Shown in pieces: positions 10,078 through 44,100 of a DNA stretch of 64,000 bases. Origin of the DNA: Eledone cirrhosa. Lineage: Eukaryota. Position numbers and translations under genes: made by a program. The stretch is from the NCBI GenBank assembly GCA_964016885.1, contig OZ024740.1, forward strand, positions 32,798,001 through 32,862,000. The letters run 5' to 3'. A model generated the notes under the pieces. The model was not told where the DNA came from and did not search any database. It saw nothing but the letters and a program-made list of their open reading frames with translations. Positions within the stretch are counted from its first letter, which is position 1, and every line of letters starts with the position of its first letter.

Positions 10078-12848
10078 TATCAACCCAACTCAGATATGTT
10101 CAAAGTATACATTCACTCATACAATACATCATACATTCTACAGTCTACTTTTAATTTCAATTAAAAGCTAGTAAATACATTGATTTGTATACTAACACCA
10201 TACAAGAAAAAAAGCCTCAGATAACTTCTATAATTCAATTCTTGTTACAAGAATCAAACTTAATCAATGTGTACAACTATATTCACTATGTAAATCTACC
10301 AATATTCAATCAATAATAGATTTGTGTTACATGATAGTCGTGGATTTGGGTGCTAATTGATAAGGTAATAATAGACTTGTTCTAGATTATAAATTATAAT
10401 TTGAAATTACGCTGATAATGTATGGGAAGTATTGTTTCTCTAGAATTAAAACAAAATTACCATTTCACTATAATAAGAGTTTAATTAAAACAACTGTAAC
10501 GTGTTTCCTCTTATTCAGAAGTATAAGTAAACGCTTAAAAAAAAATAATTACAAAACATTTCAGGTACTAAAATGAAACCAGCTGCAAATCAGAAAAATA
10601 TTTCTCTAACCAGAATCCAAAATATTTGAGATTTCTAGAACAATAAATATTAGATTACTATGAATATTCAACAGTTCGGAAAGTAGTATATCTAATATTT
10701 TACCGACATCTAACTTTCATTGATGTTGCTACTAAAAGCAACACTTGATTGCTTTTATGTTATTCTAATTAATAGGTCTTTCATTAAAAGCAATGGGACT
10801 TTTGATTTAAATAGATTATAATCTTAGAAATTCTGAAATTATTAATACTGAGAGCAGCTCTGTACATTCCTGTTTTATTTATTTATTTAGATCCGAATCA
10901 ATCGTTCACAATTATTTCTTCTATGTTGCTTTTAACAACAAAACAAAACAAAAATCAATAAGAGTTCCTGAAGCTTAAGAGAATATCTAGTGGCACATCC
11001 AGTTTGAATTCTTTCTCTATATTCCTTTGATTAATATTGAATGAATACAAAATCTATCAATCTGATTGAAGAACTAGGCCATGAATACAAGCAATAAGTG
11101 TATCAAAATTTAGCAGGTCCAAGGCCAGAATAATGTGCTTCCTCTCTCATAGCTTTTATAAAATGCGATACAACAAAATTGGTAAATTCAAAATTTACTA
11201 AAGCTTTAATGCTAATTATATAGAAGACATTAACAATGTAAATTAATTTAAAATCTTGTTTTAAATAGAGAAATCACCATTATAAATTATTAGCCTGTAT
11301 TATATATATGTACTAAAATATAATTTTAATACTGAAACTAATAATTCTAATGAATTAAGCGAATCAAATGTACATAGACTGAAATACATATAAGTGAAAT
11401 TGTATTATAGAATACAGAACGATGAAAAACAAAGAAACGTTCAAATTAAAAATGTAGTAAAAAAAATACTATCTTATTAGTAGTATTTAGTAGCAATATT
11501 TATTTTAATGTTTTCTTTCGTACACACCTGTTATTATTGAAGTAGTCAACTATTTACATGTTTGCAAGAAAACTTATTATTTTTAAAATATTTGCGTTCT
11601 GTAGTGTAAGAAAAGAAAACATCTTTGACACTTTCATAAAAATGCAACATACAGAAAATTCATCTGCTATAGCTTGAAAAAAGAGAGAGAGGGCTCTAAA
11701 AGTTACAAATAACCTTCATAATGGCAAATTCAAAGAGAAAATATAGATCAAAGGAAAACGTGTTAGGAAGTAAATGTGTTAGGTTTGCTATTAATTGTAA
11801 ATGAAACGAAAAAAAAAATAGTTTTAAGAATTGCTTGAGGTATAAAAACAAAGAACATCATCTAAGAATTGAAATAATCTCTTTAGATAAATAATATGAT
11901 TTTGGTAGTCTCAGACGTTGGCACGGAATTAATTGAAGAGAAGCATGCAGGTCTTTGTTTCCAAGATTATTTGAAACATTTAGTTCTTCATCCTCACGTG
12001 TGTGATTAAGGCATTCATTTATTTGGCATAGATTATTAAATGGAATTAAAATGGCAGATAATAGAGAGATGTAGGAATAATAGAAAATATAAGAGTAAAA
12101 ATAAAACGGATGAAATTTAGGAATACGAGAACATTTTGACAACACCACTCATGGACACAAGATAAACATGTATGTAGCTATATAATTCGTGTGTAAAATG
12201 CAACATTTCAGGCATTTTTAATCGTTTTATTTACGACCATGCAGTGATAAAAATCACATCTAGAAAAATAATCATTTTTAAGGCTCTCTTTTCCATACTT
12301 TGAGCAAATAAAAACAGAAAAACGACGTCAATGAAAGAACAACAAAAAACACAGATAACTTCACTTTTCTATAATGAGAGTCAGTCATCTGCTATTTTGG
12401 TCTTTATGAAGTAGAATTTAAGGGCATTTGCCCAACCCTTCTACTGCTGAGCTATATACTGTATTACAAACACCCTACAAATAATTGCAAACATGTAAAG
12501 ATTGTGTCGCTTGCTGATATTTTTAATTCCAAATGGGAACTATCAAGCAAATTTAGTTTTAAAAAATCAATAAGAGCTCGCCTGATATTAAAAAAAAAAC
12601 TGCCTTAATTGCCATAGACAGTATCATATAAAAATATCTTACTAAAAGTCTGTAAATACGAAAATAAGTCGACACGTTTTTAGAGTATAGTAAAGAAAAA
12701 TGGAAATATCAAGAATGTGCTAAGCTAAAATAGTCTGTGAAAGGAAAAAGAAAGACTTTGGGAGAAAAATCAAGAGAAAACTGACAAAAATAAAGGAAAA
12801 ACTGGAGATGTGAAGAAAATTGTGAGAGTGACAGGAGAGTAAAAGTGT

Positions 12849-12883
<35 letters not shown>

Positions 12884-12925
12884 GAAATAATGTAGGTGAG
12901 AGATATATAAGGAAAACGAGAGGGA

Positions 12926-12982
<57 letters not shown>

Positions 12983-13002
12983 TACATATGTGTGTGCGTG
13001 TG
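12849..13002. repeat. Compound (TA)n/(GA)n/(CA)n microsatellite
   Basis: Visible dinucleotide runs. Confidence 0.9.
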
Positions 13003-14121
13003 TTCCTTTCCTTTTTTTCCGAGTTTCGTTTCGTTTATATGAGAAGGATTAAAAAGAAAAGAAAAAACACGTGAATGACAGAAGGAAGAGGATACGTGAT
13101 AAAATGACAGAGGTGAATGAAGAAAGACTGAGAAACAAATTCAGTTGTGAAAAGATTTTAGTCAACTAGAAAACTAAAAAGATGTTTCGACAGCAAGACA
13201 CGTTTTTTTCTTCTTCCCTGTTTGTATAGAACACAAAAGAAACGGTGTGATACCGACTAATTAATTAGGCACTGCCATAGTTTTTTTTAGTCACTTCTAC
13301 AGCGGGGTTGACTTGCATAATTATACGAATTGTTTTTATAGGAGTAGTTGCGAGAAAAATAATCTAGGATACAATAAATGCAACACAACGGTGTCAATAA
13401 TGAAAAGAATAACAATTAAATGTTCAGTTTGAAAGTGGCATTACTGTAGATAACGTGTGAAAGAGGGAGGGGAGATAGACAAGTTTGGCTGATTTTGTTG
13501 TTTTTATTTGAAAAGGTGAAAGTCCTCTGGAAATAGCAATGTGAAATGATAGAGTAGCTTTGTAAGGCCGAATGGAGAATATTGATCAACATCGATAAAA
13601 ATGGTTGCACTTTTTCAAGTGATTGAGTGCATGTGTGTGTGCTTCTGTTGCATTAACGAAGCAAACTTAGCTAGCTAGATATGATGGAGCTCATCAAATA
13701 TAAAACAGCATGACACCACCTCCTCGTCCTCCTCCTCCTCCCATGCCGACACGTGCTGAATAATACTGACAATAATACTGACAATAAAACAAACTTTCAC
13801 CACATTCAACGATCATAACATCTTTTTTTTTCTTCCCTTTCAAGAGATAACACAATTTTAGTGCATCTAATATACAATGCCGAGGTGTGAACTTTAATAG
13901 ATAAAGCAAGACAAATGTTGAGATAATGAACATTTTGTTATCGCTATTTTAAAAATCGATAGTATTAAGTAAACATAAACACTAAAAGAGTGATTAAGAA
14001 AACATTAGCAGTCTAATAAAAAATACAAATCAAATGAAAATGTAACCAGATTGTTGAAGTGGTTCTATATGACATACCAATTGACTAGTAAGGAGTCAGT
14101 CACACTATAACTACCTTCAGC

Positions 14122-14340
14122 TATGTGTGCCTATATACATATACACACACAAATATAAATAAATATACATATGTATGTGTGTTTACACACACAATCATAT
14201 ATAGATATATTACATACACACACACAAACAGAAATATAAGTGCATATATATATATATATATAACATATATACACACACAGAAATATAAGTGCATATATAT
14301 ATTATATATACACACACACACACAGATATAAGTGCATGCA

Positions 14341-14377
<37 letters not shown>

Positions 14378-14378
14378 C
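14122..14378. repeat. Compound AT/AC microsatellite with a repeated cagaaatataagtgcata motif
   Basis: Three copies of the motif among TA/CA runs. Confidence 0.85.
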
Positions 14379-15680
14379 ACATATCGCCTATGAAAAACAA
14401 TGTATATTTCAAAACAAGTATTCAAGTAAAAAAGGAAAATTGCAAGCAGAGCATATGTAGGAATTTTCATGGTGTGTTCCTGAGCATAAATTAGAAATGC
14501 AATGTTAAAGCATGTTGACCAGACTCAATGAGATAACGGGGAAAAGATAATGATAGACGGGTAGTAAGTAAAGCAAAGAGATTTTATAAGAAATAAAAAG
14601 GGAGTTGAGGACAGGAAATTAACGCGAGTCCCGGAAATCTGGTACATTAGAAGAACTACAATCGGAAGTAAAGAAAATATCCTTATTTTGGGAGAGGAAA
14701 AAGTTAGGAAAATATCAGGGAACGTAAATAGCAGATTATATATCAGACAAGTTGACGATAATTTTATTAAATCTAAAGAATAAACAAGATTGTATGGTTG
14801 TTGTGTTGTTAAAGGTGCAAGACTAGATGAATGGTTGAAAAGTGTTTTGATGATCGTTTAAAAAGTGTTGTAGTTTGGGGTGATGTAAAGTATTGTTTAA
14901 TTAAAGTTCCATAGTCCAATGTCATATGTTATATATATTCTGCAAGATTGGCATGCAATATTATCATCAATTCCAGTGTGGCATTTGTGTGATCCATGTG
15001 ATTTCAAAGTAGAATTTATAACATTGTTAACCTATTTTGAAGTAGTAAATAGGTTAACAGTGTTGGGGAATTTTGGACAGTGACCAACGGACAGAACTGA
15101 CGAAATATGCTTCAGTTACAAGCTAACAACGAGTTCGGGTAGTATCGGACAATTCATAAAAAATAAAAATAAAATGGAACTATGTAAAATATATAAATAG
15201 TAAAGCAAGAAAAAAAGATAATTAGAGATAAAGTATCGACAATGAAATGTAGCGAGAATTGGCTATAAATAGCAGTTCTTTGTCCCGGCCCACAGCAGTC
15301 GACCGACCATTAACTGGACCCTACTTTACACACCATGCTATGTTATTATTGCTCCACACACATATATCTATACACATACATTATGACAGATTTTCATGAA
15401 CAAATATAAATATAATCATCATTAAATTTGTTTGAAAACTACAAAACATATACTATTGTTACCTCTCGCTAGCTAAATTTAAGCTAACACTTTACATTTA
15501 CTATACAACTTCTTACTTCCCTGCCATCTTTTTAACTCTGTCTCCCCGTTGACATGGTTGTCTACGGTCTGTTTATTTTCATGTCAAAACAAAATACTAA
15601 ACGACCATCACAAAGATCACTACCTTCATTTGCCACTCATTGTTTTCATTCTGGCCAGATATTAAAAAAATCCAGCTTAC

Positions 15681-16410
15681 CTTTTAAAAATGTGGCATTT
15701 CAAGAATGCTGAAAAGGCGAGCCAAATCACAGGGGAACTAGCTGCTATAATCACAATGAGAAAGTGAGGATCGAGATGAAATAGTCTTTAGAAAACTGGT
15801 ATATAGCTATAAAGGATCACTAATGTTGTTACTACTACTAATACTACCAATACTAATAGTAGTAGTGTTAGTGCAAATCCTAACGACAGTGCTGGCCAAC
15901 ACACTGGTACATTCCTAGCAGTGGAAGCCCAGATCACAGCAGCAGCAGTAGCAATAATAATAGTAGTAATAATAATAGTAGTAGTAGTAGATAGTGACAG
16001 TGGGAGCAGTACCATTGAGATAGTAGCAAAAGAAGAAGCACGTATGTCGCAGGTGGAGGTATGAGGTATAAACTGTGTGGTGGAAGTAGGAGGTAAAATT
16101 ATAGGAAGTAATGGGGGAGTCTCCTCTCGTTAATAGTCAAACTAGTGGTGGTAGTAGTAGTGGTGGTGGTAATGGCTACGGCAGTAGTAGTGGTGGTGAT
16201 AGTAGTGATAGTAGTGGCTACGGCGGTAGTGGTGAACACAAGGTCAACAGACCATATAAAGCCAAGGTCACAGAGCATGCTCAGTAGTTGGTTTAGCTGC
16301 CGGCAACCGACGGTACGTTCAACAACGATATTACTTTCGGATGCTACAAGCAGTGCTGATTATGGAAACCGAGTAACGACAACCAGCATGAACGCGCCGC
16401 GCCCTCGCCA
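15681..16410 (-). other. Candidate first (5' UTR) exon of a minus-strand gene
   Basis: Consensus donor AAAG|GTAAGC with the exon ending at 15681. The exon body is rich in TAC/CAC triplets and holds only short upstream ORFs. A CpG-rich patch lies at 16290-16410. The 5' boundary is uncertain. Confidence 0.5.
15822..16234. repeat. Low-complexity trinucleotide tracts (TAC/TAG/GTG/CAG)
   Basis: Visible triplet runs, which explain the poly-V/T/I ORFs. Confidence 0.85.
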
Positions 16411-16412
16411 TG
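16236..16412. promoter_or_regulatory. Candidate promoter/CpG-rich regulatory patch
   Basis: ACAAGGTCA (16238-16246) and CCAAGGTCA (16262-16270), palindrome gagcatgctc (16273-16282), X-box-like gctgccggcaac (16296-16307) and cgcgccgcgccctcgccat, all in otherwise AT-rich DNA. Confidence 0.45.
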
Positions 16413-16642
16413 TAAATGTGTGTGCGTGTGTCTGTCTACATGTATGAACACGTACGCCACTGTGAGGAACATTGTGTCTGTAAATGATATATAAATGTGT
16501 GGTGTCTGTTAAATGATATATAAATGTGTGTGTCAGTAAATGTATGTGCATATAAATGAATGTGTCTATGTACATAAATACGTATCTGTAAGTGTATATA
16601 AATCTGTGTGTGTGAACAAATACGCCACTATGAGGAACATTT
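16412..16642. repeat. TG-rich low-complexity tract flanked by a ~30-bp direct repeat
   Basis: gaaca..tacgccact.tgaggaacatt at ~16446 and ~16614, plus internal taaatgatatataaatgtgtg duplications. Confidence 0.7.
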
Positions 16643-17204
16643 TCAGCACGTATTCTCAAGGAACCATCGTTTAACAACAGACTGGCTAGTTGTCTTATAC
16701 TGGTCGCCCCCACACTTATTTTAACAATCACAATGGAACATTTATTATTATACAAAGCGTCAACAGAAAATTAAAATAGACCAGAAACCAGCGTGTATTT
16801 ACTAAATACCGAAAACTCGTGTTTCGTCTATATAGTCACTGAATGAAAAATAATTGAAATGTTCCAAACTTTCATGTCTAAATAGATTTCTCTGTTAAGA
16901 AATAATAAATTGAATTTTAAAATTATAGAAACAAATTTATGTTATTAAAAGATAGATGAGTGTTCCAGCATAAATAGAATATATGAATTGTCATTTGTTT
17001 TACTTTGACAAAGCTGGTACACACTAATTAATGCGTGTATATATATAATAGGTTATTTCAGCCCTACATGTGTTTTATTTGGGGGTGAAATAATAATTTA
17101 AAAAATTACTTAAATAGATTTTTCTGGATTGATTTCAAAATATCTCATCTGAGATGTATAAACTAAAAAAAAAAAAATGCAACACGTTTCCTGTGTTTAT
17201 AAGA

Positions 17205-17368
17205 CAATAGTTGTGAATAGTTGAGTTCGAATGCCGCCAAGGTTAGCTTTGCCTTTCATCCTTATGGGGTCGATAACAAAGTACCAGTAATGCATTTGGT
17301 CAGTTTAATCGACTTTCCCATTCCCTTCAAATTACTGTCCTTGTGTCAAATATAGAAACAATTATTTG
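17205..17368 (+). mobile_element. SINE (long subfamily)
   Basis: B box gagttcgaatgcc, core gcctttcatccttatggggtcgataa..agtaccag, 3' end ccttgtgtcaaatatagaaacaattatt. Confidence 0.85.
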
Positions 17369-17647
17369 TAGATCTAAAGTGACTGTTGCAGAAAAAGAAA
17401 CATTTATTACGGACTTGATCAACAAGAAAACTCCAGCTTCATCAATGTATCAGATATCTACCTCAATTTCTACACAAAACACTACTTATATAACCCTGTT
17501 TGTTTAAGACAATTTCCTTTGATCTAAAATAAAAAGCTATATAGTTTATACAAGATCGGTTACAGTGGTAAAAAGCGAAGATATATATAGTTATATAGTC
17601 AGTACGTTTCTCCTACTGATATATTAAATTATGTAAGATAAATTAAT

Positions 17648-17725
17648 TGGACTCTGATGAGACAATCGTCAAAGAATAAACTTCCTTTCATTCCTGGTTA
17701 GTCTAGCGAAACGGCCGTAAGTCTA
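17648..17725 (+). ncRNA. Minimal type I hammerhead ribozyme motif (Penelope-like)
   Basis: Stem I tggact (17648-53) pairs with agtcta (17720-25). Core CTGATGA (17654-60) and GAAA (17708-11). Palindromic mini stem III cggccg and GUA cleavage triplet. Stem II is long and imperfect. Confidence 0.7.
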
Positions 17726-23603: not shown

Positions 23604-23710
23604 AAATAATTATTTCTACTTTAGGCACAAGGCCAGCAATTACCCAGTGCATTACTGGTACTTTATTTTATCGACCCCGTAAGGATGAAAGGCAAAGTCA
23701 ACCTCGGCGA
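23604..23710 (-). mobile_element. 5'-truncated SINE (short subfamily)
   Basis: Nearly identical to 20233-20328. Confidence 0.9.
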
Positions 23711-23999: not shown

Positions 24000-24149
24000 C
24001 AATTTTCTAAGTAGCTGGATGTTCAGCCTGTCACTAACCAACCAACCTACCAAACAACCAACCATAGAGTAGGAATAGATATATTTCAAGTAAGGAAGTC
24101 TAGGTCAACGAGTACAGTAATGTGTGAACTATTGACCAGTGTTTCACAT

Positions 24150-24220
24150 TTAGAGTATGACAGGCTGGGTCAATGAGAGTTTGCAAAGTTCATGGGCACA
24201 ATTATTACCAACAGACCAAA
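24150..24220 (-). CDS. Candidate terminal coding exon (F)WSVGNNCAHELCKLSLTQPVIL*
   Basis: Strong acceptor gcc(t)10aatag| ending at 24221. Phase-compatible with the microexon at 41086-41114. TAA at 24152-24150. No homology search was possible. Confidence 0.42.
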
Positions 24221-24440
24221 CTATTAAAAAAAAAAGGCATAATCTCACATATATTTATTTTAAAATGTTCCTTTCCCTTAATATATATATATAAATGTCC
24301 ATTATAAATTCCCATTAATATGAATTATGTATCAAAAATGTTTTGATGTACGTTTGCAAATGATGCAAATCTTACAAAAAATAATATATTCTTTTGTAAA
24401 GGTAATTAAAGTGAATTTAATAGTATGAGATTTAAATAGA

Positions 24441-27400
24441 AATATGATTACCACTACACAACAGGCTTACATTTCAAACACTCAACAATATGGCTACACA
24501 GTCATAGTGTTACACACACACAGCATTATGACTACCACTATAAAACTGTAATAGTTTTAACAGGCAATAATATGACTGCCACTACACAACTGTCATAGTT
24601 ATAACTCAACAATATGACTACCACTACACAACTGTCATAGTTTTAACTCAACAATATGACTGCCACTACACAACTGTCATAGTTATAACTCAACAATATG
24701 ACTACCACTACACAACTGTCATAGTTATAATTCAACAATATGACTACCACTACACAACTGTCATAGTTTTAACATAACTGCCACTACACAACTGTCCTAG
24801 TTTTACAACAATATGACTACCACTACACAACTGTCATAGTTATAACAACAATATGACTACCACTAAACAACTGTCATAGTTATAACTCAACAATATGACT
24901 ACCACTACACAACAGTCATAGTTATAACTCAACAATATGACTACCACTACACAACTGTCCTAGTTTTAACAACAATATGACTACCACTACACAACTGTCA
25001 TAGTATTAACAGGCAATAATATGACTCCACTACACAACTGTGATAGTTATAACTCAACAATATGACTACCACGACACAACTGTCATAGTTATAACAACAA
25101 TATGACTACCACTACACAACTGTCATAGTTATAACTCAACAATATGACTACCACTACACAACTGTCACAGTTATAATTCAACAATATGACTACCACTACA
25201 CAACTGTCATAGTTATAACTCAACAATATGACTACCACTACACAACTGTCCTAGTTTTACAATATGACTACGACTACGCAACTGTCATAGTTATAACTCA
25301 ACAATATGGCTGCCACTACACAACTGTCATAGTTATAACTCAACAATATGACTACCACTACACAACTGTCCTAGTTTTAACATTATAACTGCCACGACAC
25401 AACTGTCCTAGTTTTAACAATATGACTACCACTATACAACTGTCCTAGTTTTAACAATATGACTACCACTACACAACTGTCCTAGTTTTAACAATATGAC
25501 TACCACTACACAACTGTCCTAGTTTTAACAACAATATGACTACCACTACACAACTGTACTAGTTTTAACAACAATATGACTACCACTACACAACTGCCAT
25601 AGTTATAACTCAACAATATGACTACCACTACACAAGTGTCCTATTTTTAACAACAATATGACTACCACCACACAACTGTACTAGTTTGAAAAACATTATG
25701 ACTGCCACTACACAACTGTCAGTTATAACAACGATATGACTACCTCAACACAACTGTCCTAGTTTTAACAACAATATGACTACCACTACACAACTGTACT
25801 AGTTTTAACAACAACATGACTGCCACTACACAACTGTCTTAGTTATAATACAAAAATATGACTACCACTACACAACTGTCATAGTTATAGTACAAATATA
25901 TGACTACAACTACAGAACTGTCATAGTTTTAAATTTTAAATGCCACTACACAACTGTCATGGTTATAACAACAATATGACTACCACTACACAACTGTCAT
26001 AGTTATAACAATATGACTACTACTACACAACTGTCATAGTTATAACTCAACAATATGACTACCACTACACAAATGTCCTAGTGTTACAACAATATGACTA
26101 CCACTACACAACTGTCCTAGTTTTACAACAATATGACTACCACTACACAACTGTCATAGTTTTAACATTATGACTGCCACTACACAACTGTCATAGTTAT
26201 AACTCAACAATATGACTACCACTACACTACTGTCCTAGTTTTAACAACAATATGACTACCACTACACAACTGTCCTAGTTTTAACAACAATATGACTACC
26301 ACTACACAACTGTCCTAGTTTTAACAACAATATGACTACCACTACACAACTGTACTAGTTTTAACAACAATATGACTACCACTACACAACTGGTATAGTT
26401 ATAACTCAACAATATGACTACCACTACACTACTGTCCTAGTTTTAACAACAATATGACTACCACTACACAACTGTACTAGTTTTAAAAACAATATGACTA
26501 CCACTACACAACTGTCCTAGTTTTAACAACATTATGACTGCCACTACACAACTGTCCTAGTTTTAACGACAATATGACTGCCACTACACAACTGTCATAG
26601 TTATAATACAAAAATATGACTACGACTACACAACCGTCATAGTTTCAACATTTTGACTGCACCTACACAACTGTCATGGTTATAACAACAATATGACTAC
26701 CACTACACAACTGTCATAGTTATAACAATATGACTACCACAACACAACTGTCATAGTTTTACAACAATATGACTACCACTACACAACTGTCCTAGTTTTA
26801 CAACAATATGACTAGCACTACACAACTGTCATAATTTTAACATTATGACTGCCACTACACAACTGTCATAGTTATAACTCAACAATATGACTACCACTAC
26901 ACAACTGTCCTAGTTTTAACAACAATATGACTACCACTACACAACTGTACTGGTTGTAATTATATGACTACCACTACACAACTGTCATAGTTATAACAAT
27001 ATGACTACCACAACACAACTGTCATAGTTTTACAACAATATGACTACCACTACACAACTGTCCTAGTTTTACAACAATATGACTAGCACTACACAACTGT
27101 CATAATTTTAACATTATGACTGCCACTACACAACTGTCATAGTTATAACTCAACAATATGACTACCACTACACAACTGTCATAGTTATAATTCAACAATA
27201 TGACTACCACTACACAACTGTCCTAGTTTTAACATTATGACTGCCACGACACAACTGTCCTAGTTTTAACAATATGACTACCACTACACAACTGTCCTAG
27301 TTTTAACAATATGACTACCACTACACAACTGTCCTAGTTTTAACAACAATATGACTACCACTACACAACTGTCCTAGTTTTAACAACAATATGACTACCA

Positions 27401-30400
27401 CTACACAACTGTACTAGTTTTAACAATATGACTACCACTACACAACTATCATAGTTATAACTCAACAATGACTACCACTACACAACTGTCCTGGTTTTAA
27501 CAATATGACTACCACTACACAACTGTACTAGTTTTAACAGCAATATGACTACCACTACACAACTGTCATAGTTTTACAACAATATGACTACCACTACACA
27601 ACTGTACTAGTTTTAAGAATATGACTACCACTACACAACTATCATAGTTATAACTCAACAATGACTACCACTACACAACTGTCCTGGTTTTAACAATATG
27701 ACTACCACTACACAACTGTCATAGTTTTACAACAATATGACTACCACTACACAACTGTCCTAGTTTAACAACAATATGACTACCACTACACAACTGTACT
27801 AGTTTTAACAACAATATGACTACCACTTCACAACTGTACTAGTTTTAACAACAATATGACTACCACTACACAACTGGCATAGTTATAACTCAACAATATG
27901 ACCACCACCACACAACTGTACTAGTTTTAAAAACAATATGACTACCACTACACAACTGTCCTAGTTTTAACACAACGATATGACGACCACTACACAACTG
28001 TACTAGTTTTAACAACAATATGACTGCCACTACACAACTGTCATAGTTATAATACAAAAATATGACTACCACTACACAACTGTCATAGTTATAATACAAA
28101 AATATGACTACCACTACACAACTGTCATAGTTTTAACAATATGACTGCCACTACACAACTGTCATGGTTATAACAACAATATGACTACCACTACACAACT
28201 GTCATAGTTATAACTCAACAATATGACTACCACTACACAACTGTCATAGTTATAACAACAATATGACTACCACTACACAACTGTCCTAGTTTTAAGAACA
28301 TTATGACTGCCACGACACAACTGTCATAGTTATAACTCAACATTATGACTGCCACTACACAACTGTCATAGTTATAATAATATGACTACCACACAACTGT
28401 CATAGTTATAACAACAGTATGACTACCACTACACAATTGTCATAGTTTTAACAATATGACTACCACTACACAACTGTCCTAGTTTTAACAACAATATGAC
28501 TACCACTACACAACTGCACTAGTTTTAACAGCAATATGACTACCACTACACAACTGTCATAGTTATAACTCAACAATATGACTACCACTACGCATCTGTC
28601 CTAGTTTTAACAACAATATGACTACCACTACACAAATGTCATAGTTATAACTCAACATTATGACTGCCACGACAACTGTCCTAGTTTTAACAACAATATG
28701 ACTACCACTACACAACTGTACTGGTTTTAACAACAATATGACTACCACTACACAACTGTCATAGTTATAACTCAACAATATGACTACCACTACACAACTG
28801 TCCTAGTTTTAACAACAATATGACTACCACTACACAACTGTACTAGTTTTAACAACAATATGACTACCACTACACAACTGTCATAGTTATAACAACAATA
28901 TGACTGCCACTACACAACTGTCCTAGTTTTAACAACAATATGACTACCACTACACAACCGTCCTAGTTTTAACAATATGACTACCACTACACAACTGTAC
29001 TAGTTTTAACAACAATATGACTACCACTAACCAACTGTCCTAGTTTTAACACAACATTATGACTGCCACTACACAACTGTCATAGTCATAACAACAATAT
29101 GACTGCCACTACACAACTGTCATAGTTATAATTCAACAATATGACTACCACTACACAACTGTCAATTATAACTCAACATTATGACTGCCACGACACAACT
29201 GTCCTAGTTTTAACAACGTGACTACCACGACACAACTGTCCTAGTTTTAACAACAATATGACTACCACTACACAACTGTCATAGTTATAACTCAACAATA
29301 TGACTACCACTACACAACTGTCCAAGTTTTACCAACAATATGACTACCACTACACAACTGTCATAGTTTTAACATAACATGTCTACCACTACACAACTGT
29401 CATAGTTATAACAACAATATGACTACCACTACACAACTGTCATAGTTATAACAACAATATGACTACCACTACACAACTGTCATAGTTATAACAACAATAT
29501 GACTACCACTACACGACTGTCCTAGTGTTAAGAACAATATGACTACCACTACACAACTGTCATAGTTTTAACAACAATATGACTACCACTACACAACTGT
29601 CCTAGTTTTAAAACATTATGACTGCCACTACACAACTGTCATAGTTTTAACAATATGACTACCACTACACAACTGTCATAGTAATAATGACAATATGACT
29701 ACCACTACACAACTGTCAGTTATAACATAACAATATGACTACCACTACACAACTGTCATAGTTATAACTCAATATAGCTACCACTACACAACTGTCATAG
29801 TTATAACTCAACAATATGACTTCCACTACACAACTGTCATAGTTTTAACAACAATATGACTCCCGCTACACAACTGTCATAGTTATAACAATATGACTGC
29901 CACTACACAATTGTCAAAGTTATAATTCAACAATATGACTACCACTACACAACTGTGATAGTCATAACTCAACAATATGACTACCACTACACAACTGTCC
30001 TAGTGTTAACAACAATATGACTACAACTACACAACTGTCATACTTTTAACGACATTATGACTGCCACGACAACTGTCATAGTTATAACTCAACATTATGA
30101 CTGCCACTACACAACTGTCATAGTTATAACAATATGACTGCCATTACACAACTGTCATAGTTATAACTCAACAATATGACTGCCACTACACAACTGTCAT
30201 AGTTATAATTCAACAATATGACTACCACTACACAACTGTCAGTTATAACTCAACAATATGACTACCACTACACAACTGTCATAGTTATAACTCAATATGA
30301 CTACCACTACACAACTGTCATCGTTATAACTCAACAATATGACTTCCACTACACAACTGTCATAGTTATAACTCAACATTATGACTACCGCTACACAACT

Positions 30401-33400
30401 GTCATAGTTATAACAACAATATGACTGCCACGACACAACTGTCATAGTTATAACTCAACAATATGACTACCACTACACAACTGTCACAGTTATAATTCAA
30501 CAATATGACTGCCACTACACAACTGTCATAGTTTTATAAAAATATGACTACGACTACACAACTGTCATAGTTATAACTCAACAATATAGTTGCCACTACA
30601 CAACTGTCATAGTTATAACTCAACAATATGACTAGCACAACACAACTGTCATAGTTATAATTCAACAATATGACTACCACTACACAACTGTCCTAGTTTT
30701 AACGTTATGACTGCCACGACACAACTGTCCTAGTTTTAACAATATGACTACCACTACACAACTGTCCTAGTTTTAATAATATGACTACCACTACACAACT
30801 GTACTTGTTTTAAAAGCAATATGACTACCACTACACAACTGTCCTACTTTTAACAACAATATGACTACCACTACACAACTGTACCAGTTTTAACAACAAT
30901 ATTATTACCACTACACAGCTGTCCTAGTTTTAACACAACATTATGACTGCCACTACACAGCTGTCATAGTTATAACTCAACATTATGACTGCCACTACAC
31001 AACTGTTATAGTTATAACAACGATATGACTACCACTACACAACTGTCCTAGTTTAAACAACAATATGACTACCACTACACAACTGTACTAGTTTTAACAA
31101 CAATATGACTGGCACTACACAACTGCCATAGTTATAATACAAAAATATGACTACCACTACACAACTGTCATAGTTTTAACATTATGACTGCCTCTACACA
31201 ACTGTCATAGTTATAACAATATGACTACCACTACACAAATGTCCTAGTTTTACAACAATATGACTACCACTACACAACTGTCATAGTTTTAACAACAATA
31301 TAACTACCACTACACAACTGTCCTAGTTTTAACACATTATGACTGCCACTACACAACTGTCATAGTTATAATACAAAAATATGACTACCACTACACAACT
31401 GTCATAGTTATGACAATAAGACTACCACTACACAACTGTCATAGTTTTAACATTATGACTGCCACTACACAACTGTCCTAGTATTAAGAACAATATGACA
31501 ACCACTACACAACTTTCATACTTATAACTCAACAATATGACTACCACTACACAAATGTCCTAGTTTTACAACAATATGACTACCACTACACCACTGTCAT
31601 AGTTATAAGAATATGACTACCACTACACAAATGCCCTAGTTTTACAACAATATGACTACCACTACACAACTGTCATAGTTTTAACAACATTATGACTGAC
31701 AATACACTACTGTCATAGTTATAACAACAATATGACTACCGCTACACAACTGTCAGTTATAATACAACAATATGATTACCACTACACAACTGTCATAGTT
31801 ATAACTCAACAATATGACTACCACAACACAACTGTCATAGTTTTACAACAATATGACAACTACACAACTGTCATAGTTATGACTGAACATTATGACTGCC
31901 ACTACACAACTGTCATAGTTATAACAACAATATGACTACCACTACACAACTGTCATAGTAATAATTCAACAATATGACTAGCACTACACAACTATCATAG
32001 TTATAACTCAATATGACTGCCACTACAGAACTATCCTAGTTTTAACATTATAACTGCTACGATACAACTCTCCTAGTTTTAACAACAATATGACTACCAC
32101 TACACAACTGTACTAGTTTTAACGAAAATATGACTACCACTACACAACTGTACTGGTTTTAACAACAACATGACTACCACTACACAACTGGCATAGTTCT
32201 AACTCAACAATATGACTACCACTACACAACCGTCCTAGTTTTAACAATATGACTACCACTACACAACTGTACTAGTATTCACAACAATATGACTACCACT
32301 ACACAACTGTACTAGTATTCACAACAATATGACTACCACTACACAACTGTACTAGTTTTAACAATATGACTACCACTACACAACTGTCATAGTTATAACT
32401 CAACAATATGACTACCACTAAACAACTATCATAGTTATAACTCAACAATATGACTACCACTACACAACTGTCCTAGTTTTGACAACAATATGACTACCAC
32501 TACACAACTGTACTAGTTTTAACAACAATATGACTACCACTACACAACTGTCCTAGTTTTACAACAATATGACTACCACTACACAACTGTCATACTTTCA
32601 ACAACACTATGACTACCACTACACAACTGTCATAGTTATAACTCAACAATATGACTACCACTACACAACTGTCATAGTTTTACAACAATATGACTACCAC
32701 TACACAACTGTCATAGTTTTAACAACATTATGATTGCCACTACATAACTGTCATAGTTATAACAACAATATGACTACCACTACACAACTGTCTCAGTTAT
32801 AACAACAATATTACTACCATTACACAACTGTCCTAGTATTAAGAACAATATGACCACCACTACACAACTGTCATAGTTTTAACAACAATATAACTACCAC
32901 TACACAACTGTACTAGTTTTAACAACAATATGACTACCACTACACAACTGTCATAGTTTTAACACAACATTATGACTGCCACTACACAACTGTCATAGTT
33001 ATAACTCAACAATATGATTACCACTACACAACTGTCATTGTTATAACTCAACAATATGATTACCACTACACAACTGTCATAGTTATAACTCAACAATATG
33101 ACTACCACTGCATAACTGTACTAGCTTTAACAACAATATGACTACCACTACACAACTGTACTAGTTTTAACAACAATATGACTACCACTACACAACTGTC
33201 CTAGTTTTAACAACAATATGACTACCACTACACAACTGTACTAGTTTTAACAACAATATGACTACCACTACACAGCTGTCATAGTTTTAACTCAACATTA
33301 TGACTACCATTACACAACTGTCCTAGTTTTAACAACAATATGATTACCACTACACAACTGTACTAGTTTTAACAACAATATGACTACCACTACACAGCTG

Positions 33401-36400
33401 TCATAGTTTTAACTCAACATTATGACTACCATTACACAACTGTCCTAGTTTTAACAACAATATGATTACCACGACACAACTGTGATAGTTATAACTCAAC
33501 AATATGACTACCACGACACAACTGTGATAGTTATAACTCAACAATATGACTACCATTACACAACTGTCCTAGTTTTAACAACAATATGATTACCACTACA
33601 CAACTGTACTAGTTATAACTCAACATTATGACTGCCACGACACAACTGTCCTAGTTTTAACAATATAACTACCACTACACAACTGTACTAGTTATAACTC
33701 AACATTATGACTGCCACGACACAACTGTCCTAGTTTTAACAATATGACTACCACTACACAACTGTACTAGTTTTAACAACAATATGACTACCACTACACA
33801 ACTGTCCTAGTTTTAACAAAACATTATGACTGCCACTACACAGCTGTCATAGTTATAGATCAACATTATGACTGCCACTACACAACTGTCAGTTATAACG
33901 ATATGACTACCACTACACAACTGTCCTAGTTTTAACAACAATATGACTACCACTACACAACTGTACTAGTTTTAACAACAATATGACTACCACTACACAA
34001 CTGTCATAGTTTTACAACAATATGACTGCCACTACACAACTGTCATAGTTATGACTCAACAATATGACTACCACTACACAATATGACTGCCACTACATAA
34101 CTGTCATAGTTATAACTCAACAATATGACTACCACTACACAACTGTCATAGTTATAACTCAACAATATGACTACCACTACACAACTGTCATAGTTTTACA
34201 ACAATATGACTACCACTACAAAACTGTCATAGTTTTAACACATTATGACTGCCACTACACAACTGTCATGGTTATAACAACAATATGACTGCCACTACAC
34301 AACTGTCATAGTTATAATACAAAAATATGACTGCCACTACACAACTGTCATAGTTTTACCAATATGACTACCACTACACAACTGTCATAGTTATAACAAC
34401 AATATGACTACCACTACACAAATGTCATAGTTTTACAACAATATGACTACCACTACACAACTGTCATAGTTTTAACAACAATATAACTACCACTACACAA
34501 CTGTCCTCGTTTTAACACATTATGACTGCCACTACACAGCTGTCATAGTTATAATGACAATAATACTACCACCACACAACTGTCATTGTTTAACATTATG
34601 ACTACCACTACACAACTGTCCCAGTATTAAGAACAATATGACTACCACTACACAAATGTCATAGTTACAACAATATGACTACCACTACACAACTGTAATA
34701 GTTATAACAACATTATGACTGCCACTACACAACTGTCATAGTTATAATACAATATGACTGCCACTCCACAACTGTCATAGTTATAACAACAATATGACTA
34801 CCACTACACAACTGTCATAGTTATAATTCAACAATATGACTACCACTACACAACTATCATAGTTATAACTCAGTATGACTGCCACTACAGAACTGTCCTA
34901 GTTTTAACATTATGACTGCCACAACAACTCTCCTAGTTTTAACAAAAATATGACTACCACTACACAACTGTACTAGTTTTAACAACAATCTGACTACCAC
35001 GAAACAACTGGCATATTTCTAACTCAACAATATGACTACCACTACACAACCGTCCTAGTTTTAACAATATGACTACCACTACACAACTGTACTAGTATTA
35101 ACAACAATATGACTACCACTACACAACTGTCCTAGTTTTGACAATATGACTACCACTACACAACTGTACTAGTTTTAACAACAATATGACTACCACTACA
35201 AAACTGTCATAGTTAAAACTCACAAAATATGACTACCACTACACAACTCTCCTAGTTTTAATAATATGACTACCACTACACAACTGTCATAGTTTTAACA
35301 ACAATATGACTACCACTACACAACTGTCCTAGTTTTAATAACAATATGACTACCAATACACAACTGTCATAGTTTTAACAACAATATGACTACCACTACA
35401 CAACTGTCATAGTTTTAACAACAATATGACTACCACTACACAACTGTCTTAGTTTTAACAACAATATGACTACCACTACACAACTGTCATAGTTTTAACA
35501 ACAATATGACTACCACTACACAACTGTCATAGTTTTAATAACAATATGACTACCACTACACAACTGTCATAGTTTTAACAACAATATGACTACCACTACA
35601 CAACTGTCATAGTTTTAACAACAATATGACTAGCACTACACAACCATCATAGTTTTAACAACAATATGACTACCACTACACAACTGTCATAGTTTTAATA
35701 ACAATATGACTACCACTACACAACTGTCATAGTTTTAACAACAATATGACTACCACTACACAACTTTCCTAGTATTAAGAACAATATGACTACCACTACA
35801 CAACTGTCATAGTTATAACTCAACAATATGACTACCACTACACAAATGTCCTAGTTTTACAACAATATGACTACAACTACACAACTGTCATAGTTTTAAC
35901 ATTATGACTGCCACTACACAACTGTACTAGTTTTAACAACAATATGACTACCACTACACAACTGTCATAGTTATAACTCAACAATATGACTACCACTACA
36001 CAACTGTCCTAGTTCTAACAACAATATGACTACCACTACACAACTGTCATAGTTATAACTCAACATTATGACTGCCACTACACAACTGTTCTAGTTTTAA
36101 CAACAATATGACTACCACTACACAACTGTCATAGTTACAACAATATGACTACCACTACACAATTGTCATAGTTATAACTCAATATTATGACAACCACTAC
36201 ACAACTGTCATAGTTATAACTCAACAATATGACTGCCACGACACGACTGTCATAGTTATAACTCAACAATATGACTACCACTACACAACTGTCATAGTTA
36301 TAACTCAACAATATGACTACCACTACACAACTGTACTAGTTTTAACAACAATATGACTACCACTACACAACTGTCATAGTTTTAACAACAATATGAGTAC

Positions 36401-39400
36401 CACTACACAACTGTCATAGTCATAACTCAACAATATGACTACCACTACACAAATGTCATAGTTTTACAACAATATGACTACCACTACACAACTGTCGTAG
36501 TTATAACAACAATGACTACCATTACACAATTGTCAGTTATAACAACAATGTGACTACCACTATACAACTGTCATAGTTATAACTCAACATTATGACTGCC
36601 ACTACACAACTGTCCTAGTTTTAACAACAATATGACTACCACTACACAACTGTGATAGTTCTAACTCAACAATATGACTACCACTATACAACTGTGATAG
36701 TTACAACTCAACAATATGACTACCACTACACAACTGTCATAGTTATAACAACAATATGACTACTACTACACAATTGTCAGTTATCACAACAATATGACTA
36801 CCACTACACAACTGTCATAGTTACAACAATATGACTACCACTACACAATTGTCATAGTTATAACTCAATATTATGACAACCACTACACAACTGTCATAGT
36901 TATAACTAAACAATATGACTGCCACGACACGACTGTTCTAGTATTCACAACAATATGACTACCACTACACAACCGTACTAGTTTTAACAACAATATGACT
37001 ACCACTACACAACTGTACTAGTTTTAACAACAAGATGACTACCACTACACAACTGTCCTACTTTTAACAACAATATGACTACCACTACACAACTGTACTA
37101 GTTTTAACAACAATATGACTACCACTGCACAACTGTTCTAGTTTTAACAACAATGTGACTACCACTACACAACTGTACTAGTTTTAACAACAATATGACT
37201 ACCACTACACAACTGTACTAGTTTTAACAACAATATGACTACCACTACACAACTATACTAGTTTTAACAACAATATGACTACCACTACACAACTGTAATA
37301 ATTATAACTCAACAATATGACTGCCACAACACAACTGTCCTGGTTTTAACAATATGACTACCACTACACAGCTGTAATAATTATAACTCAACAATATGAC
37401 TGCCACAACACAACTGTCCTGGTTTTAACAATATGACTACCACTACACAACTGTCAGTTATAACTCAACAATATGACTACCACTACACAACTGTCCTAGT
37501 TTTAACAATATGACTACCACTACACAACTGTCCTAGTTTTAACAACAATATGACTACCACTACACAACTGTACTAGTTTTAACAACAATAAGACTACCAC
37601 TACACAACTGTCCTAGTTTTAACAATAAGACTACCACTACACAACTGTGATAGTTATAACTCAACAATATGACTACCACTACACAACTGTCCTAGTTTTA
37701 ACAACAATATGACTACCACTACACAACTGTACTAGTTTTAACAACAATATGACTACCACTACACAACTGTCCTAGTTTTAACATGACTGCCACGACAACT
37801 GTCCTTGTTTTAACGATATGACTACCATTACACAACTGTCCTAGTTTTAACAATATGACTACCACCAGACAACTGTCCTAGTTTTAACAACAATATGACT
37901 ACCACTACACAACTGTACTAGTTTTAACAACAATATGACTACCACTACACAACTGTACTAGTTTTAACAACAATCTGACTACCACTACACAACTGTACTA
38001 GTTTTAACAGCAATCTGACTACCACTACACAACTGTCATAGTTATAACTCAACAATATGACTGCCACTACACAACTGTCCTAGGTTTAACAACAATATGA
38101 CTACCACTACACTACTGTACTAGTTTTAACAACAATATGACTACCACTACACAACTGTCATAGTTATAACTCAACAATATGACTGCCACTACACAACTTT
38201 ACTAGGTTTAACAACAATATGACTACCACTAAACAACTGTACTAGTTTTAACAACAATATGACTACCACTAAACAACTGTCCTAGTTTTAACAACAATAT
38301 GACTACCACTACTCAACTGTCCTAGTTTTAACAACAATATGACTACCACTACACAACTGTACTAGTTTTAACTCAACAATATGACCACCACTACACAACT
38401 GTCCTAGTTTTAAAAACAATATGACTGCCACAACACGACTGTCCTAGTTTTAACAACAAAATGACTACCACTACACAACTGTCCTAGTTTTAACAACAAT
38501 ATGACTACCACTACACAACTGTACTAGTTTTAACAACAATATGACTGCCACTACACAACTGTCCTAGTTTTAACAACAAAATGACTACCACTACACAACT
38601 GTCCTAGTTTTAACAACAATATGACTACCACTACACAACTGTACTAGTTTTAACAACAATCTGACTACCACTACACAACTGTACTAGTTTTAACAACAAT
38701 ATGACTACCACTACACAACGGTCATAGTTATAACTCAACAATATGACTACCACTACACAAATGTCATAGTTTTACAACAATGTGACCACCACTACACAAC
38801 TGTCCTAATTTTAACAACAATATGACTACCACTACATAAACTGTCCTAGTTTTACAAACAATATGACTACCACTACACAACTGTCATAGTTCTAACTCAA
38901 CAATATGACGACCACTACACAACTGTGATAGTTATAACTCAACAATATGACCACCACTACACACCTGTCATAGTTATAACAACGATATGACTACCACTAC
39001 ACAACTGTCATAGTTATAACAACAATATGACTACCACTACACAATTGTCAGTTATAAAAACAATATGACTACCACTGCACAACTGTCATAGTTACAACAA
39101 TATGACTACCAGTACACAATTGTCATAGTTGTAACTCAATATTATGACAACCACTACACAACTGTCATAGTTATAACTCAACAATATGACTACCACTACA
39201 CAAATGTCATAGTTTTACAACAATATGACCACCACTACACAACTGTCATAGTTTTAACAACAATATGACTACCACTACATAACTGTCCTAGTTTTAAAAA
39301 CAAAATGACTACCACTACACAACTGTCAGTTATAACAACAATGACTACCACTACACAATTGTCAGTTATAACAACAATATGACTACCACTACACAATTGT

Positions 39401-40987
39401 CATAGTTATAACTCAACAATATGACTACCACTACACAACTGTCATAGTTTTAACTCATCAATATGACTGCCACTACACAACTGTCATAGTTATAACTCAA
39501 CAATATGACTACCACTACACAACTGTCATAGTTATAACTCAACAGTATGACTCCCACTACACAACTGTCATAGTTTTAACTCAACAGTATGACTCCCACT
39601 ACACAACTGTCATAGTTTTAACTCAACAATATGACTGCCACTACACAATTGTCATAGTTATAACTCAACAATATGACTACCACTACACAACTGTACTAGT
39701 TTTAACAACAATATGAGTACCACTACACAACTATCATAGTTATAACTCAACAATATGACTGCTACGACAACTGTCATAGTTATAACTCAACAATATGATT
39801 ACCACTACACAACTGTCCTAGTTTTAACAACAATATGACTACCACTACACAACTGTCATAGTTATAACTCAACAATATGACTACCACCACACAACTATAC
39901 TAGTTTTAACAACAATATGACTACCACTACACAACTGTACTAGTTTTAACAACAATATGACTACCACTACACAACTGTACTAGTTTTAACAACAATATGA
40001 CTACCACTACACGACTGTACTAGTTTTAACAACAATATCACTACCACTACACAACTGTCCTAGTTTTAACAACAATATGACTACCACTACACAACTGTCC
40101 TAGTTTTAACAACAATATGACTACCACTACACAACTGTACTAGTTTTAACAACAATATGACTACCACTACACAAATGTACTAGTTTTAACAACAATATGA
40201 CTACCATAACACAACTGTACTAGTTTTAACAACAATATGACTACCACTACACAACTGTCCTAGTTTTAACAATATGACTACCACTACACAACTGTCCTAG
40301 TTTTAACAACAATATGACTACCACTACACAACTGTCCTAGTTTTAACAATATGACTACCACTACACAACTGTCCTAGTTTTAACAACAATATGACTACCA
40401 CTACACAACTGTCCTAGTTTTAACAACAATATGACTACCACTACACAACTGTACTAGTTTTAACAACAATATGACTACCACTACACAACTGTCATAGTTA
40501 TAACTCAACAATATGACTGCCACTACACAACTGTACTAGGTTTAACAACATTATGACTACCACTAAACAACTGTACTAGTTTTAACAACAATATGAGTGC
40601 CACTACACAACTGTCCTAGTTTTATCAACAATATGACTACCACTAAACAACTGTACTAGTTTTAACAACAATATGACTGCCACTACACAACTGTCCTAGT
40701 TTTAACAACAATATGACTACCACTAAACAACTGTCTTAGTTTTAACAACAATATGACTACCACTACACAACTGTACTAGTTTTAACAACAATATGACTGC
40801 CACTACACAACTGTCCTAGTTTTAACAACAATATGACTACCACTACACAACTCTACTAGTTTTAACAACAATATGACTACCACTACACAACTGTCCTAGT
40901 TTTAACAACAATATGACTACCACTACACAACTGTCCTAGTTTTAACAACAATATGACTACCACTACACAACTGTACTAGTTATAACA
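24441..40987. repeat. Satellite A: ~37-42 bp tandem array, roughly 400 units
   Basis: Consensus aatatgactaccactacacaactgtc(a/c)tagtt(a/t)taac(tc)aac. The first units at 24441-24570 are degenerate. Confidence 0.99.
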
Positions 40988-41085
40988 CACTTTCAGATCT
41001 CAAGTGAAGCAGGTAGGAGAGTAGAATGATATTTATAGTTTATAAATGATTTTCTTTTAATAATTTAGTTAGGGAGGAGACTAAC

Positions 41086-41114
41086 ATCTGAGAACCTTTT
41101 CAGGGTCTCCATAA
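41086..41114 (-). CDS. Candidate 29-nt microexon (xYGDPEKVLRx; alternative frame xMETLKRFSD)
   Basis: Minus strand reads tgtctccttttcctctcatcctttcaccag|TTATGGAGACCCTGAAAAGGTTCTCAGAT|gttagt. It has a long pyrimidine tract, a CAG acceptor, a GTTAGT donor and two open frames. Confidence 0.48.
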
Positions 41115-41139
41115 CTGGTGAAAGGATGAGAGGAAAAGG

Positions 41140-44100
41140 AGACATTATCTAACGGGTAAGAGGTACAGTATGTAACAGGTGAGAGGGACAGTATGTAACA
41201 GGTGAGAGAGACAGTATGTAACAGGTGAGAGAGACAGTATGTAACAGGTGAGAGGGACAGTATGTAACAGGTGAGAGAGACATTATGTAACAGGTGAGAG
41301 GGATAGTATGTAACAGGTGAGAGAGACAGTATGTAACAGGTGAGAGACAGTATGTAACAGATGAGAGTCACAGTATGTAACAAGTGAGAGAGACAGTATG
41401 TAACAGGTGAGAGAGACAGTATGTAACAGGTGAGATTCAGTATGTAACATGTGAGAGAGACAGTATGTAACAGGTGAGAGAGACAGTATGTAACAGGTGA
41501 GAGGGACAGAATGTAACAGGTGAGAGAGTCAGTATGTAACAGATGAGAGAGACAGTATGTAACAGATGAGAGAGACAGTATGTAACAGATGAGAGAGACA
41601 GTATGTAACAGATGAGAGAGACAGTATGTAACAGGTGAGAGACAGTATGTAACATGTGAGAGAGACAGTATGTAACAGATGAGAGAGACAGTATGTAACA
41701 GATGAGAGAGACAGTATGTAACAGGTGAGAGACAGTATGTAACAGGTGAGAGGGACAGTATGTAACAGGTGAGAGGGACAGTATGTAACAGGTGAGAGGG
41801 ACAGTATGTAACAGGTGAGAGGGACAGTATGTAACAGGTGAGAGACAGTATGTAACAGGTGAGAGACAGTATGTAACAGGTGAGAGGGACAGTATGTAAC
41901 AGGTGAGAGGGACAGTATGTAACAGGTGAGAGAGACAGTATGTAACAGGTGAGAGAGACAGTACGTAACAGGTGAGAGAGACAATATGTAACAGGTGAGA
42001 GACAGTATGTAACAGGTGACAGACACAGTATGTAACAAGTGAGAGAGACAGTATGTAACAGGTGAGAGACAGTATGTACAGGTGAGGGAGACAGTATGTA
42101 ACAGGTGAGAGAGACAGTATGTAACAGGTGAGAGGGACAGTATGTAACAGGTGAGAGACACCGTATGTAACAGGTGACAGACACAGTATGTAACAGGTGA
42201 GAGAGACAGTATGTAACAGGTGAGAGACAGTATGTAGCAGGTGAGGACAGTATGTAACAGGTGAGAGAGACAGTATGTAACAGGTGAGAAAGACATTATG
42301 TAACAGGTGAGAGGGATAGTATGTAACAGGTGAGAGACAGTATGTAACAGATGAGAGTCACAGTATGTAACAGGTGAGAGAGTCAGTATGTAACAGGTGA
42401 GAGAGACAGTATGTAACAGGTGAGAGAGACAGTATGTAACAGGTGAGAGGGACAGTATGTAACAGGTGAGAGGGACAGTATGTAACAGGTGAGAGAGACA
42501 GTATGTAACATGTGAGAGACAGTATGTAACAGGTGAGAGAGACACTATGTAACAGGTGAGAGAGACACTATGTAACAGGTGAGAGACAGTATGTAACAGG
42601 TGAGAAGGACAGTATGTAACAGGTGAGAGAGACAGTATGTAACAGGTGAGAGACAGTATGTAACAGGTGAGAGACAGTATGTAACAGGTGAGAGACAGTA
42701 TGTAACAGGTGAGAGACAGTATGTAACAGGTGAGAGAGACAGTATGTAACATGTGAGACAGTATGTAACATGTGAGACAGTATGTAACATGTGAGACAGT
42801 ATGTAACATGTGAGAGAGACAGTATGTAACAGGTGAGAGAGACAGTATGTAACAGGTGAGAGACAGTATGTAACATGTGAGAGGGACAGTATGTAACAGG
42901 TGAGAGGGACAGTATGTAACAGGTGAGAGACAGTATGTAACAGGTGAGAGACAGTATGTAACAGGTGAGAGACAGTATGTAACAGGTGAGAGATAGTAAC
43001 AGGTGAGAGATAGTATGTAACAGGTGAGAGGGACAGTATGTAACAGGTGAGAGGGACAGTATGTAACAGGTGAGAGGGACAGTATGTAACAGGTGAGAGG
43101 GACAGTATGTAACAAGTGAGAGAGACAGTATGTAACAGGTGAGAGAGACAGTACATAACAGGTGAGAGAGACAATATGTAACAGGTGAGAGACAGTATGT
43201 AACAGGTGAGAGAGACAGTATGTAACAGGTGAGAGAGACAGTATGTAACAGGTGAGAGAGACAGTACGTAACAGGTGAGAGAGACAATATGTAACAGGTG
43301 AGAGACAGTATGTAACAGGTGAGAGGGACAGTATGTAACAGGTGAGAGAGACAGTATGTAACAGGTGAGAGGGACAGTATGTAACAGGTGAGAGACACCG
43401 TATGTAACAGGTGACAGACACAGTATGTAACAGGTGAGAGAGACAGTATGTAACAGGTGAGGACAGTATGTAACAGGTGAGAGAGACAGTATGTAACAGG
43501 TGAGACAGACATTATGTAACAGGTGAGAGGGATAGTATGTAACAGGTGAGAGAGACAGTATGTAACAGGTGAGAGACAGTATGTAACAGATGAGAGTCAC
43601 AGTATGTAACAGGTGAGAGAGTCAGTATGTAACAGGTGAGAGACAGTATGTAACAGGTGAGAGAGACAGTATGTAACAGGTGAGAGGGACAGTATGTAAC
43701 AGGTGAGAGGGACAGTATGTAACAGGTGAGAGAGACAGTATGTAACATATGAGAGACAGTATGTAACAGGTGAGAGAGACACTATGTAACAGGTGAGAGA
43801 CAGTATGTAACAGGTGAGAAGGACAGTATGTAACAGGTGAGAGAGACAGTATGTAACATGTGAGAGACAGTATGTAACAGGTGAGAGACAGTATATAACA
43901 TGTGAGACAGTATGTAACATGTGAGACAGTATGTAACATGTGAGACAGTATGTAACATGTGAGACAGTATGTAACATGTGAGAGAGACAGTAAGTAACAG
44001 GTGAGAGAGACAGTATGTAACATGTGAGAGACAGTATGTAACATGTAAGAGACAGTATGTAACATGTGAGAGAAACAATATGTAACAGGTGAGAGACAGT

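Follow-up and report, generated by a model that had tools for sequence, protein, structure and literature searches.

A satellite-filled giant intron of the KDM6A/UTX gene in the octopod Eledone cirrhosa

In a 64,000-bp stretch of the 3.0-Gb assembly of Eledone cirrhosa (G000:C1:32,798,001-32,862,000, hereafter the window; positions outside 1-64000 carry the same numbering into the neighbouring assembly DNA), two long tandem satellites, A and B, are separated by a short spacer, the island. A first-pass annotation had taken 29 nt of this island for a microexon of a new WD40-like gene, placed between two satellite-filled giant introns. The satellite-filled giant intron is real, is larger than first described and belongs to UTX: as read from the exon map, the whole window is part of the minus-strand KDM6A/UTX gene, in the interval from exon 5 to exon 6. 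Neither the microexon nor the new gene is likely to be real. The reading that we favour, and hold to be rather probable, places the window within UTX intron 5 and would make the island a leftover of that intron, left out when exons 5 and 6 are joined by splicing.

UTX and its fifth intron

The host was reached through a scan for exon-like stretches, which picked out, near 190 kb, two candidates on the minus strand immediately downstream of a gene with dsRBD domains. The frame of UTX exon 1 matches one protein, P0001 of Octopus bimaculoides, a cluster mate of which is named histone demethylase UTY-like. UTX was mapped exon by exon, by tblastn with cuttlefish UTX proteins, and the arrays were delimited with Tandem Repeats Finder (TRF):

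190214-190132, minus strand: UTX exon 1
189829-189766, minus strand: UTX exon 2
Unplaced contig C949: UTX exons 3-5, with exon 5 at C949:33559-33617
Starting at -51892, minus strand (G000:C1 near 32,746,100, 52 kb left of the window): UTX exon 6
Exon 5 (C949) to exon 6 (-51892), minus strand, with 1-64000 inside: UTX intron 5, from the exon map and the in-frame join
24520-40987: satellite A, 40-mer, 412 copies, single-locus (TRF)
40988-41138: spacer (island) between satellites A and B, 151 bp, single-copy
41139-154147 (41139-64000 inside the window): satellite B, 23-mer, 113,009 bp, about 5,018 copies, essentially single-locus (TRF and neighbouring DNA)

Exons 1 and 2 lie about 126 kb past the right end of the window, and the later exons, down to -92471, are on the window's own contig in the orientation of exon 6. 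Exons 1-6 spliced without the island read in frame over 173 codons with no stop, and their product is identical to O. bimaculoides UTX (P0002) at 127 of 134 residues. The exons located span residues 10 to 1301 of cuttlefish UTX, the TPR and JmjC parts included. The traits of the family are present (TPR, JmjC, KDM6 C-helical and GATA-like domains), with Pfam TPR matches in the N-terminal TPR array, and at the exon 5-exon 6 junction there is no coding difference from the KDM6A/UTX family.

Since exon 5 and exon 6 flank the window, arrays A and B sit in intron 5, and the window likely lies in one single intron and not in two. The first-pass annotation was thus right about arrays in giant intronic DNA of a minus-strand gene, and wrong, most likely, about the number of introns. 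It had also expected an upstream exon beyond satellite B; the gene found upstream is UTX. Intron 5 measures at least 235,145 bp, one unsized gap included, and satellites make up 65% of it overall and 71% of its part on the window's contig. A further array of 18.6 kb, a little to the left of the window (-19612 to -1000), also belongs to it. Introns 6-14 range roughly from 0.4 to 7.8 kb.

The array lengths first given hold as far as they went: satellite A had been put at about 16.5 kb, and satellite B, claimed to exceed 22.8 kb, is several times that. Decayed monomers of satellite A extend for about 90 bp more beyond its left edge. Contigs from sequencing runs have very high depth on both arrays, as real repeats would give, although the runs may be the assembly's own source data; over 40930-41200, the three runs checked behave as DNA contigs, with depth in the thousands on both satellites and none on the island, a hole that proves nothing because records are filtered. 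Genome-wide, all 168 matches to the satellite A motif fall within its array, and 1,360 of 1,361 matches to the satellite B motif fall at this locus. This near-total confinement of each satellite to one place suggests that both were amplified in place.

Long arrays are common in this genome, and the region around UTX is rich in them. In the 564 kb around the window, arrays of at least 1 kb occupy 57.5% of the sequence, and in the next 200 kb leftward they account for 37.8 kb, whereas they cover 6.4% of 39 spaced 10-kb genome tiles, two of which are entirely satellite. Other long arrays within 560 kb, each with its own unit, are the 18.6-kb array already mentioned, one of more than 65 kb (298500 to beyond 364000) and one of 61 kb (-187303 to -125895). 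LINE-like (long interspersed nuclear element) reverse-transcriptase copies occur at 630-2560 and 159094-173903; by eye, some are near full length and near-identical to one another.

Gene models break here because the parts of UTX fall in a scaffold gap, on an unplaced contig and on an inverted one. Contig C949, of 57,977 bp, includes 4.3 kb of the 32-mer array that is also present in UTX intron 2 (173904-189039). The unique 310 bp at its head match 160123-159813, a stretch shortly before the N gap 158894-159093, with 99.7% identity, and this match with the scaffold edge implies that C949 extends into the gap. The C-terminal exons (residues 849-1301, with the JmjC, helical and GATA-like parts) are found at -390837 to -368142, 370-390 kb to the left and inverted, and an N gap at -125267 separates the JmjC exons from the 5' half of UTX. 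Because they are inverted beyond a scaffold gap, their linkage to the 5' half is one that we infer; the inversion is a probable scaffolding misorientation of the contig. In the DNA examined around the locus, neither the exon for residues 813-848 nor much of residues 536-629 was located. Ahead of the exon that encodes residue 849 lies a 43-mer array of 9 kb or more. Among UTX models and contigs of mosquito, tick, bivalve and cuttlefish (P0017-P0032), many stop precisely at the final residue of exon 5, which suggests that intron 5 often breaks gene models across protostomes.

The island and its splice-like signals

The motifs on which the microexon had been proposed are all in place on the minus strand, within an island that was rightly described as about 150 bp of unique DNA; a genome search with the 151 bp returns a single match, the island itself. 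The partner acceptor is likewise where it had been put, with its G at 24221, and the spacing between the two sites is 16,865 nt, as claimed, and 97.6% satellite against the approximately 98% given. The two proposed exons are:

41086-41114, minus strand: proposed 29-nt microexon, preceded by a pyrimidine tract and CAG and followed by a GTTAGT donor; likely a pseudo-exon
24150-24220, minus strand: proposed terminal exon, acceptor of 8.5 bits, 22-codon frame and stop; single copy, no family match

Splice sites were scored with a model trained on 27 true local acceptors and 26 true donors. The island acceptor reaches 0.2 bits and falls below all 27 true acceptors, which score 4.2-18.3 in a leave-one-out test; the low score is due to composition, as the island tract holds 10 C, whereas the tracts of true acceptors are rich in T and have no more than 5 C. 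The island donor, at 4.4-4.6 bits, exceeds only 4 of the 26 true donors. The 33.7 kb of unique intron contain 125 pseudo-exons at least as good as the island candidate (a count that includes overlapping ones and uses the donor set that gives 4.4 bits). Placed between exons 5 and 6, the 29-nt stretch is not frame-preserving and leads to a stop inside exon 6.

Homologs agree with the direct join. Among 42 proteins, the exon-5 motif was found in 33 and the pattern was absent in nine. All 17 homologs that run from exon 5 into exon 6 do so without an insertion, the other 16 end at or just after exon 5, and the island peptide was found in none of the 33, a set that includes no full-length octopod protein. 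The exon 5-exon 6 junction falls within a TPR (residues 112-143 of P0004). UTX thus has no need of the island as an exon: the reading frame passes intact from exon 5 into exon 6, and the proposed peptide is missing from the homologs compared. One path through the island, from exon 5 by way of a 28-nt stretch at 15708-15681 to exon 6, does restore the frame; it was rejected as coincidence because the acceptor of that stretch scores -0.6 bits and the insert would split the TPR. A candidate upstream partner exon at 155320-155293 was also dropped, its donor scoring 1.8 bits and UTX having then been found.

The splice-like signal of the island appears to have a source next to it. The sense strand of satellite B is C-rich and 72% pyrimidine, with which the C-rich island tract agrees. 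In the 60 nt adjoining satellite B, which hold the tract, the proposed exon and its donor, the likeness to satellite B is such that only 3 of 513 background intron windows are as B-like when scored with 12-mers and 5 of 513 with 14-mers; near-matching words showed no likeness of this stretch to satellite A. In dinucleotide shuffles the 30-nt acceptor stretch is likewise satellite-B-like (6/1000). Most simply, these 60 nt would be a decayed edge of satellite B, or the sequence from which B grew.

The gene directly upstream of UTX offers a control. It lies on the same strand (228395-200696), holds three dsRBD with dsrm Pfam matches, and is presumably of the TARBP2/PACT type. Two of its consecutive exons join in phase across an intron with three arrays and spacers of 158 and 52 bp; since these spacers are skipped in phase, such spacers need no exon. 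The arrays in the introns of this gene are a 7.7-kb 40-mer, a 2.8-kb 35-mer and a 1.3-kb 21-mer.

The sense strand of satellite B contains 2.5 AG per kb, compared with 48 per kb in unique DNA, and forms a 113-kb AG desert with no AATAAA and no GTRAG. Each unit has a CTCAC that we take to resemble a branch point. Of the 10 arrays checked, 9 lack AATAAA on the sense strand, as could happen by chance where units are short.

The favoured reading and its rivals

Under the reading that we prefer, short units amplified locally in tandem would have built several long single-locus arrays and so stretched intron 5 beyond 235 kb; the 151-bp island would be a remnant of intron between two of them, passed over in exon 5-exon 6 splicing. 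It would take the remaining gap to be bridged as the exon order implies, polymerase to read through the arrays in this species, the arrays to have arisen in place, and the tract and splice-like motifs of the island to be decayed satellite B.

Several observations weigh against this reading. The exon 5-exon 6 splicing is here a prediction from genomic sequence, and the splice model was built on few sites. The far end of C949 showed no overlap with the window's contig, and the scaffold is locally unreliable, as the inverted JmjC exons beyond another gap attest. The full-length homologs are from cuttlefish, bivalve and mammal, with no full-length octopod UTX among 14 matches. By plain pyrimidine count the island tract is rare: at 20 of 22, it is equalled by two acceptors in 52.9 kb of the same intron strand, one of them with a donor. 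The phase 2 that follows UTX exon 5 runs into the very frame first proposed for the island, a one-in-three coincidence. In dinucleotide shuffles of the first 75 nt of the island, the likeness to satellite B is not significant (544/2000).

Some of these points would suit the island as a real minor exon of UTX, the first good acceptor met after a 113-kb array that is poor in AG and rich in pyrimidine. Spliced onto exon 6 it would act as a poison exon; spliced onto the acceptor at 24220, it continues the phase-2 frame open to the stop at 24150 and would give a truncated protein of about 166 residues without the demethylase domain. The 24220 acceptor has the strength of a true site, in a stretch (24060-24440) that matches only itself in the genome, and an AATAAA follows at 23667. 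Yet 23 acceptors equally good occur in the 33.7 kb of unique intron, the AATAAA sits, by eye, in a dispersed repeat, and either splice path would break the TPR. With an acceptor unlike true octopod ones, a weak donor, a peptide seen in no homolog and pseudo-exons of its quality common in intron 5, we regard a minor exon as unlikely. A bolder variant, in which a young 113-kb satellite made a new exon at its own decayed edge and, together with the 24220 exon and an internal CpG-island promoter, splits UTX into a TPR-only and a shorter catalytic protein or tunes its dose by nonsense-mediated decay, seems to us a shade more doubtful still.

The promoter in question would lie in the following domain:

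11500-17700: CpG-rich domain in UTX intron 5, observed/expected ratio 0.72; candidate internal promoter or first exon

The ratio of 0.72 resembles that of the UTX promoter bins (0.55-0.62) and not that of the rest of the gene body (0.26-0.27). In the available part of a study of octopus methylation, the mark is enriched over gene bodies and scant at promoters (PMC9476566). The domain may act as a promoter within the intron, serving a shorter UTX or an antisense transcript. Triplet-repeat tracts occur within it. UTX could on this account be functionally split, with a first exon ending at 15681 and joined to exon 6 while the unit of exons 1-5 ends earlier, and the 113-kb array need not then be crossed to make the enzyme. 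The strong minus-strand donor after 15681 (7.9 bits) would fit, as would the protostome models that stop at exon 5 and, as a weak hint, a cuttlefish-cluster open reading frame (ORF), P0039, that begins within exon 6. Full-length cuttlefish ORFs exist, however (P0033, on 19 contigs), and the phase-2 GTAA donor creates a stop whenever a model or contig enters the intron, which alone accounts for the endings at exon 5. All four ATGs in the exon-6 frame within 16700-15681 are blocked by stops, and an internal promoter could coexist with a full-length transcript. A split gene is thus improbable in our judgement.

From the same domain a plus-strand non-coding transcript nested in the intron might start and include the island, whose plus-strand sites beat those of the minus strand: three acceptors score 4.6, 7.2 and 8.9 bits, and the donor at 41013, which closes a 16-nt exon-like stretch at 40997-41012 (+), scores 8.8 bits. 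Scores of that level are common in intron DNA, though, no protein-family or RNA-family match was obtained (Rfam over 1-42000 gave none), and the plus-strand frame tested, 16223-16411, found no homolog among longer proteins; we think such a transcript very improbable. As to the independent WD40-like gene, whose last two exons would be the pair proposed here, each stretch occurs once in the genome and the two can form an open frame, but the gene found upstream is UTX, by eye no upstream exon of another gene lies between satellite B and UTX exon 5, and the two halves of the proposed peptide, scanned separately, match no Pfam family at E up to 5. Pfam had no match for any of 12 candidate frames and no credible one for 7 further window frames, and none of 10 local frames was found in exact look-ups. 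This gene is hardly credible.

Satellite introns and other long introns

Unless RNA bears them out, the claimed new gene and its microexon add little. Long introns can contain pseudo-exons, poison exons and recursive-splice exons. The island resembles these: it is a short AG...GT stretch set in a very long intron, and including it would shift the frame; unlike a recursive-splice site, its acceptor has no GT directly after it.

In Octopus minor, intron enlargement is described as a driver of genome size, with a mean intron of 5.4 kb and transposons stressed (PMC6279123); the portion of that account at hand says nothing of a single-locus satellite of 113 kb within an intron. The part seen of a work on grasshoppers suspects intron gigantism (PMC7754599), and in the main text of a preprint on cephalopod genome architecture, as far as it was available, the word 'satellite' does not occur (10.1101/2025.08.29.672809). 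A literature search at the level of listings returned nothing on a satellite-filled UTX intron or on such octopod intron arrays, a point on which supplementary repeat tables may bear. Listings and passages likewise gave nothing on a short Drosophila isoform of Utx.

If the arrays are read through, this would be a case of satellite-driven intron gigantism in a conserved chromatin regulator and not in a testis-specific Y gene. Because each array is confined to a single locus, one probe marks one gene, and transcription timing, splicing order and variation in array length become directly testable. The likeness to the Y-linked fertility genes of Drosophila that had been proposed for this DNA holds in kind, although the locus does not belong to their family. 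According to the excerpts available, kl-3 and kl-5 are spermatocyte-specific Y genes whose introns are megabases long, form more than 99% of the locus and are built of simple repeats, (AATAT)n for instance; transcription through the arrays has been demonstrated in them (PMC6508621, PMC11207136). Set beside what those excerpts describe, UTX of E. cirrhosa is likewise a conserved coding gene with short exons separated by an intron that is mostly tandem satellite. It differs in that its intron, about 65% of it satellite, reaches at least 0.235 Mb, with a chromatin enzyme as the host, and in that the units are of 23-45 nt, each at one locus, with a largest array of 113 kb, through which polymerase would have to read as it does through those of kl-3 and kl-5.

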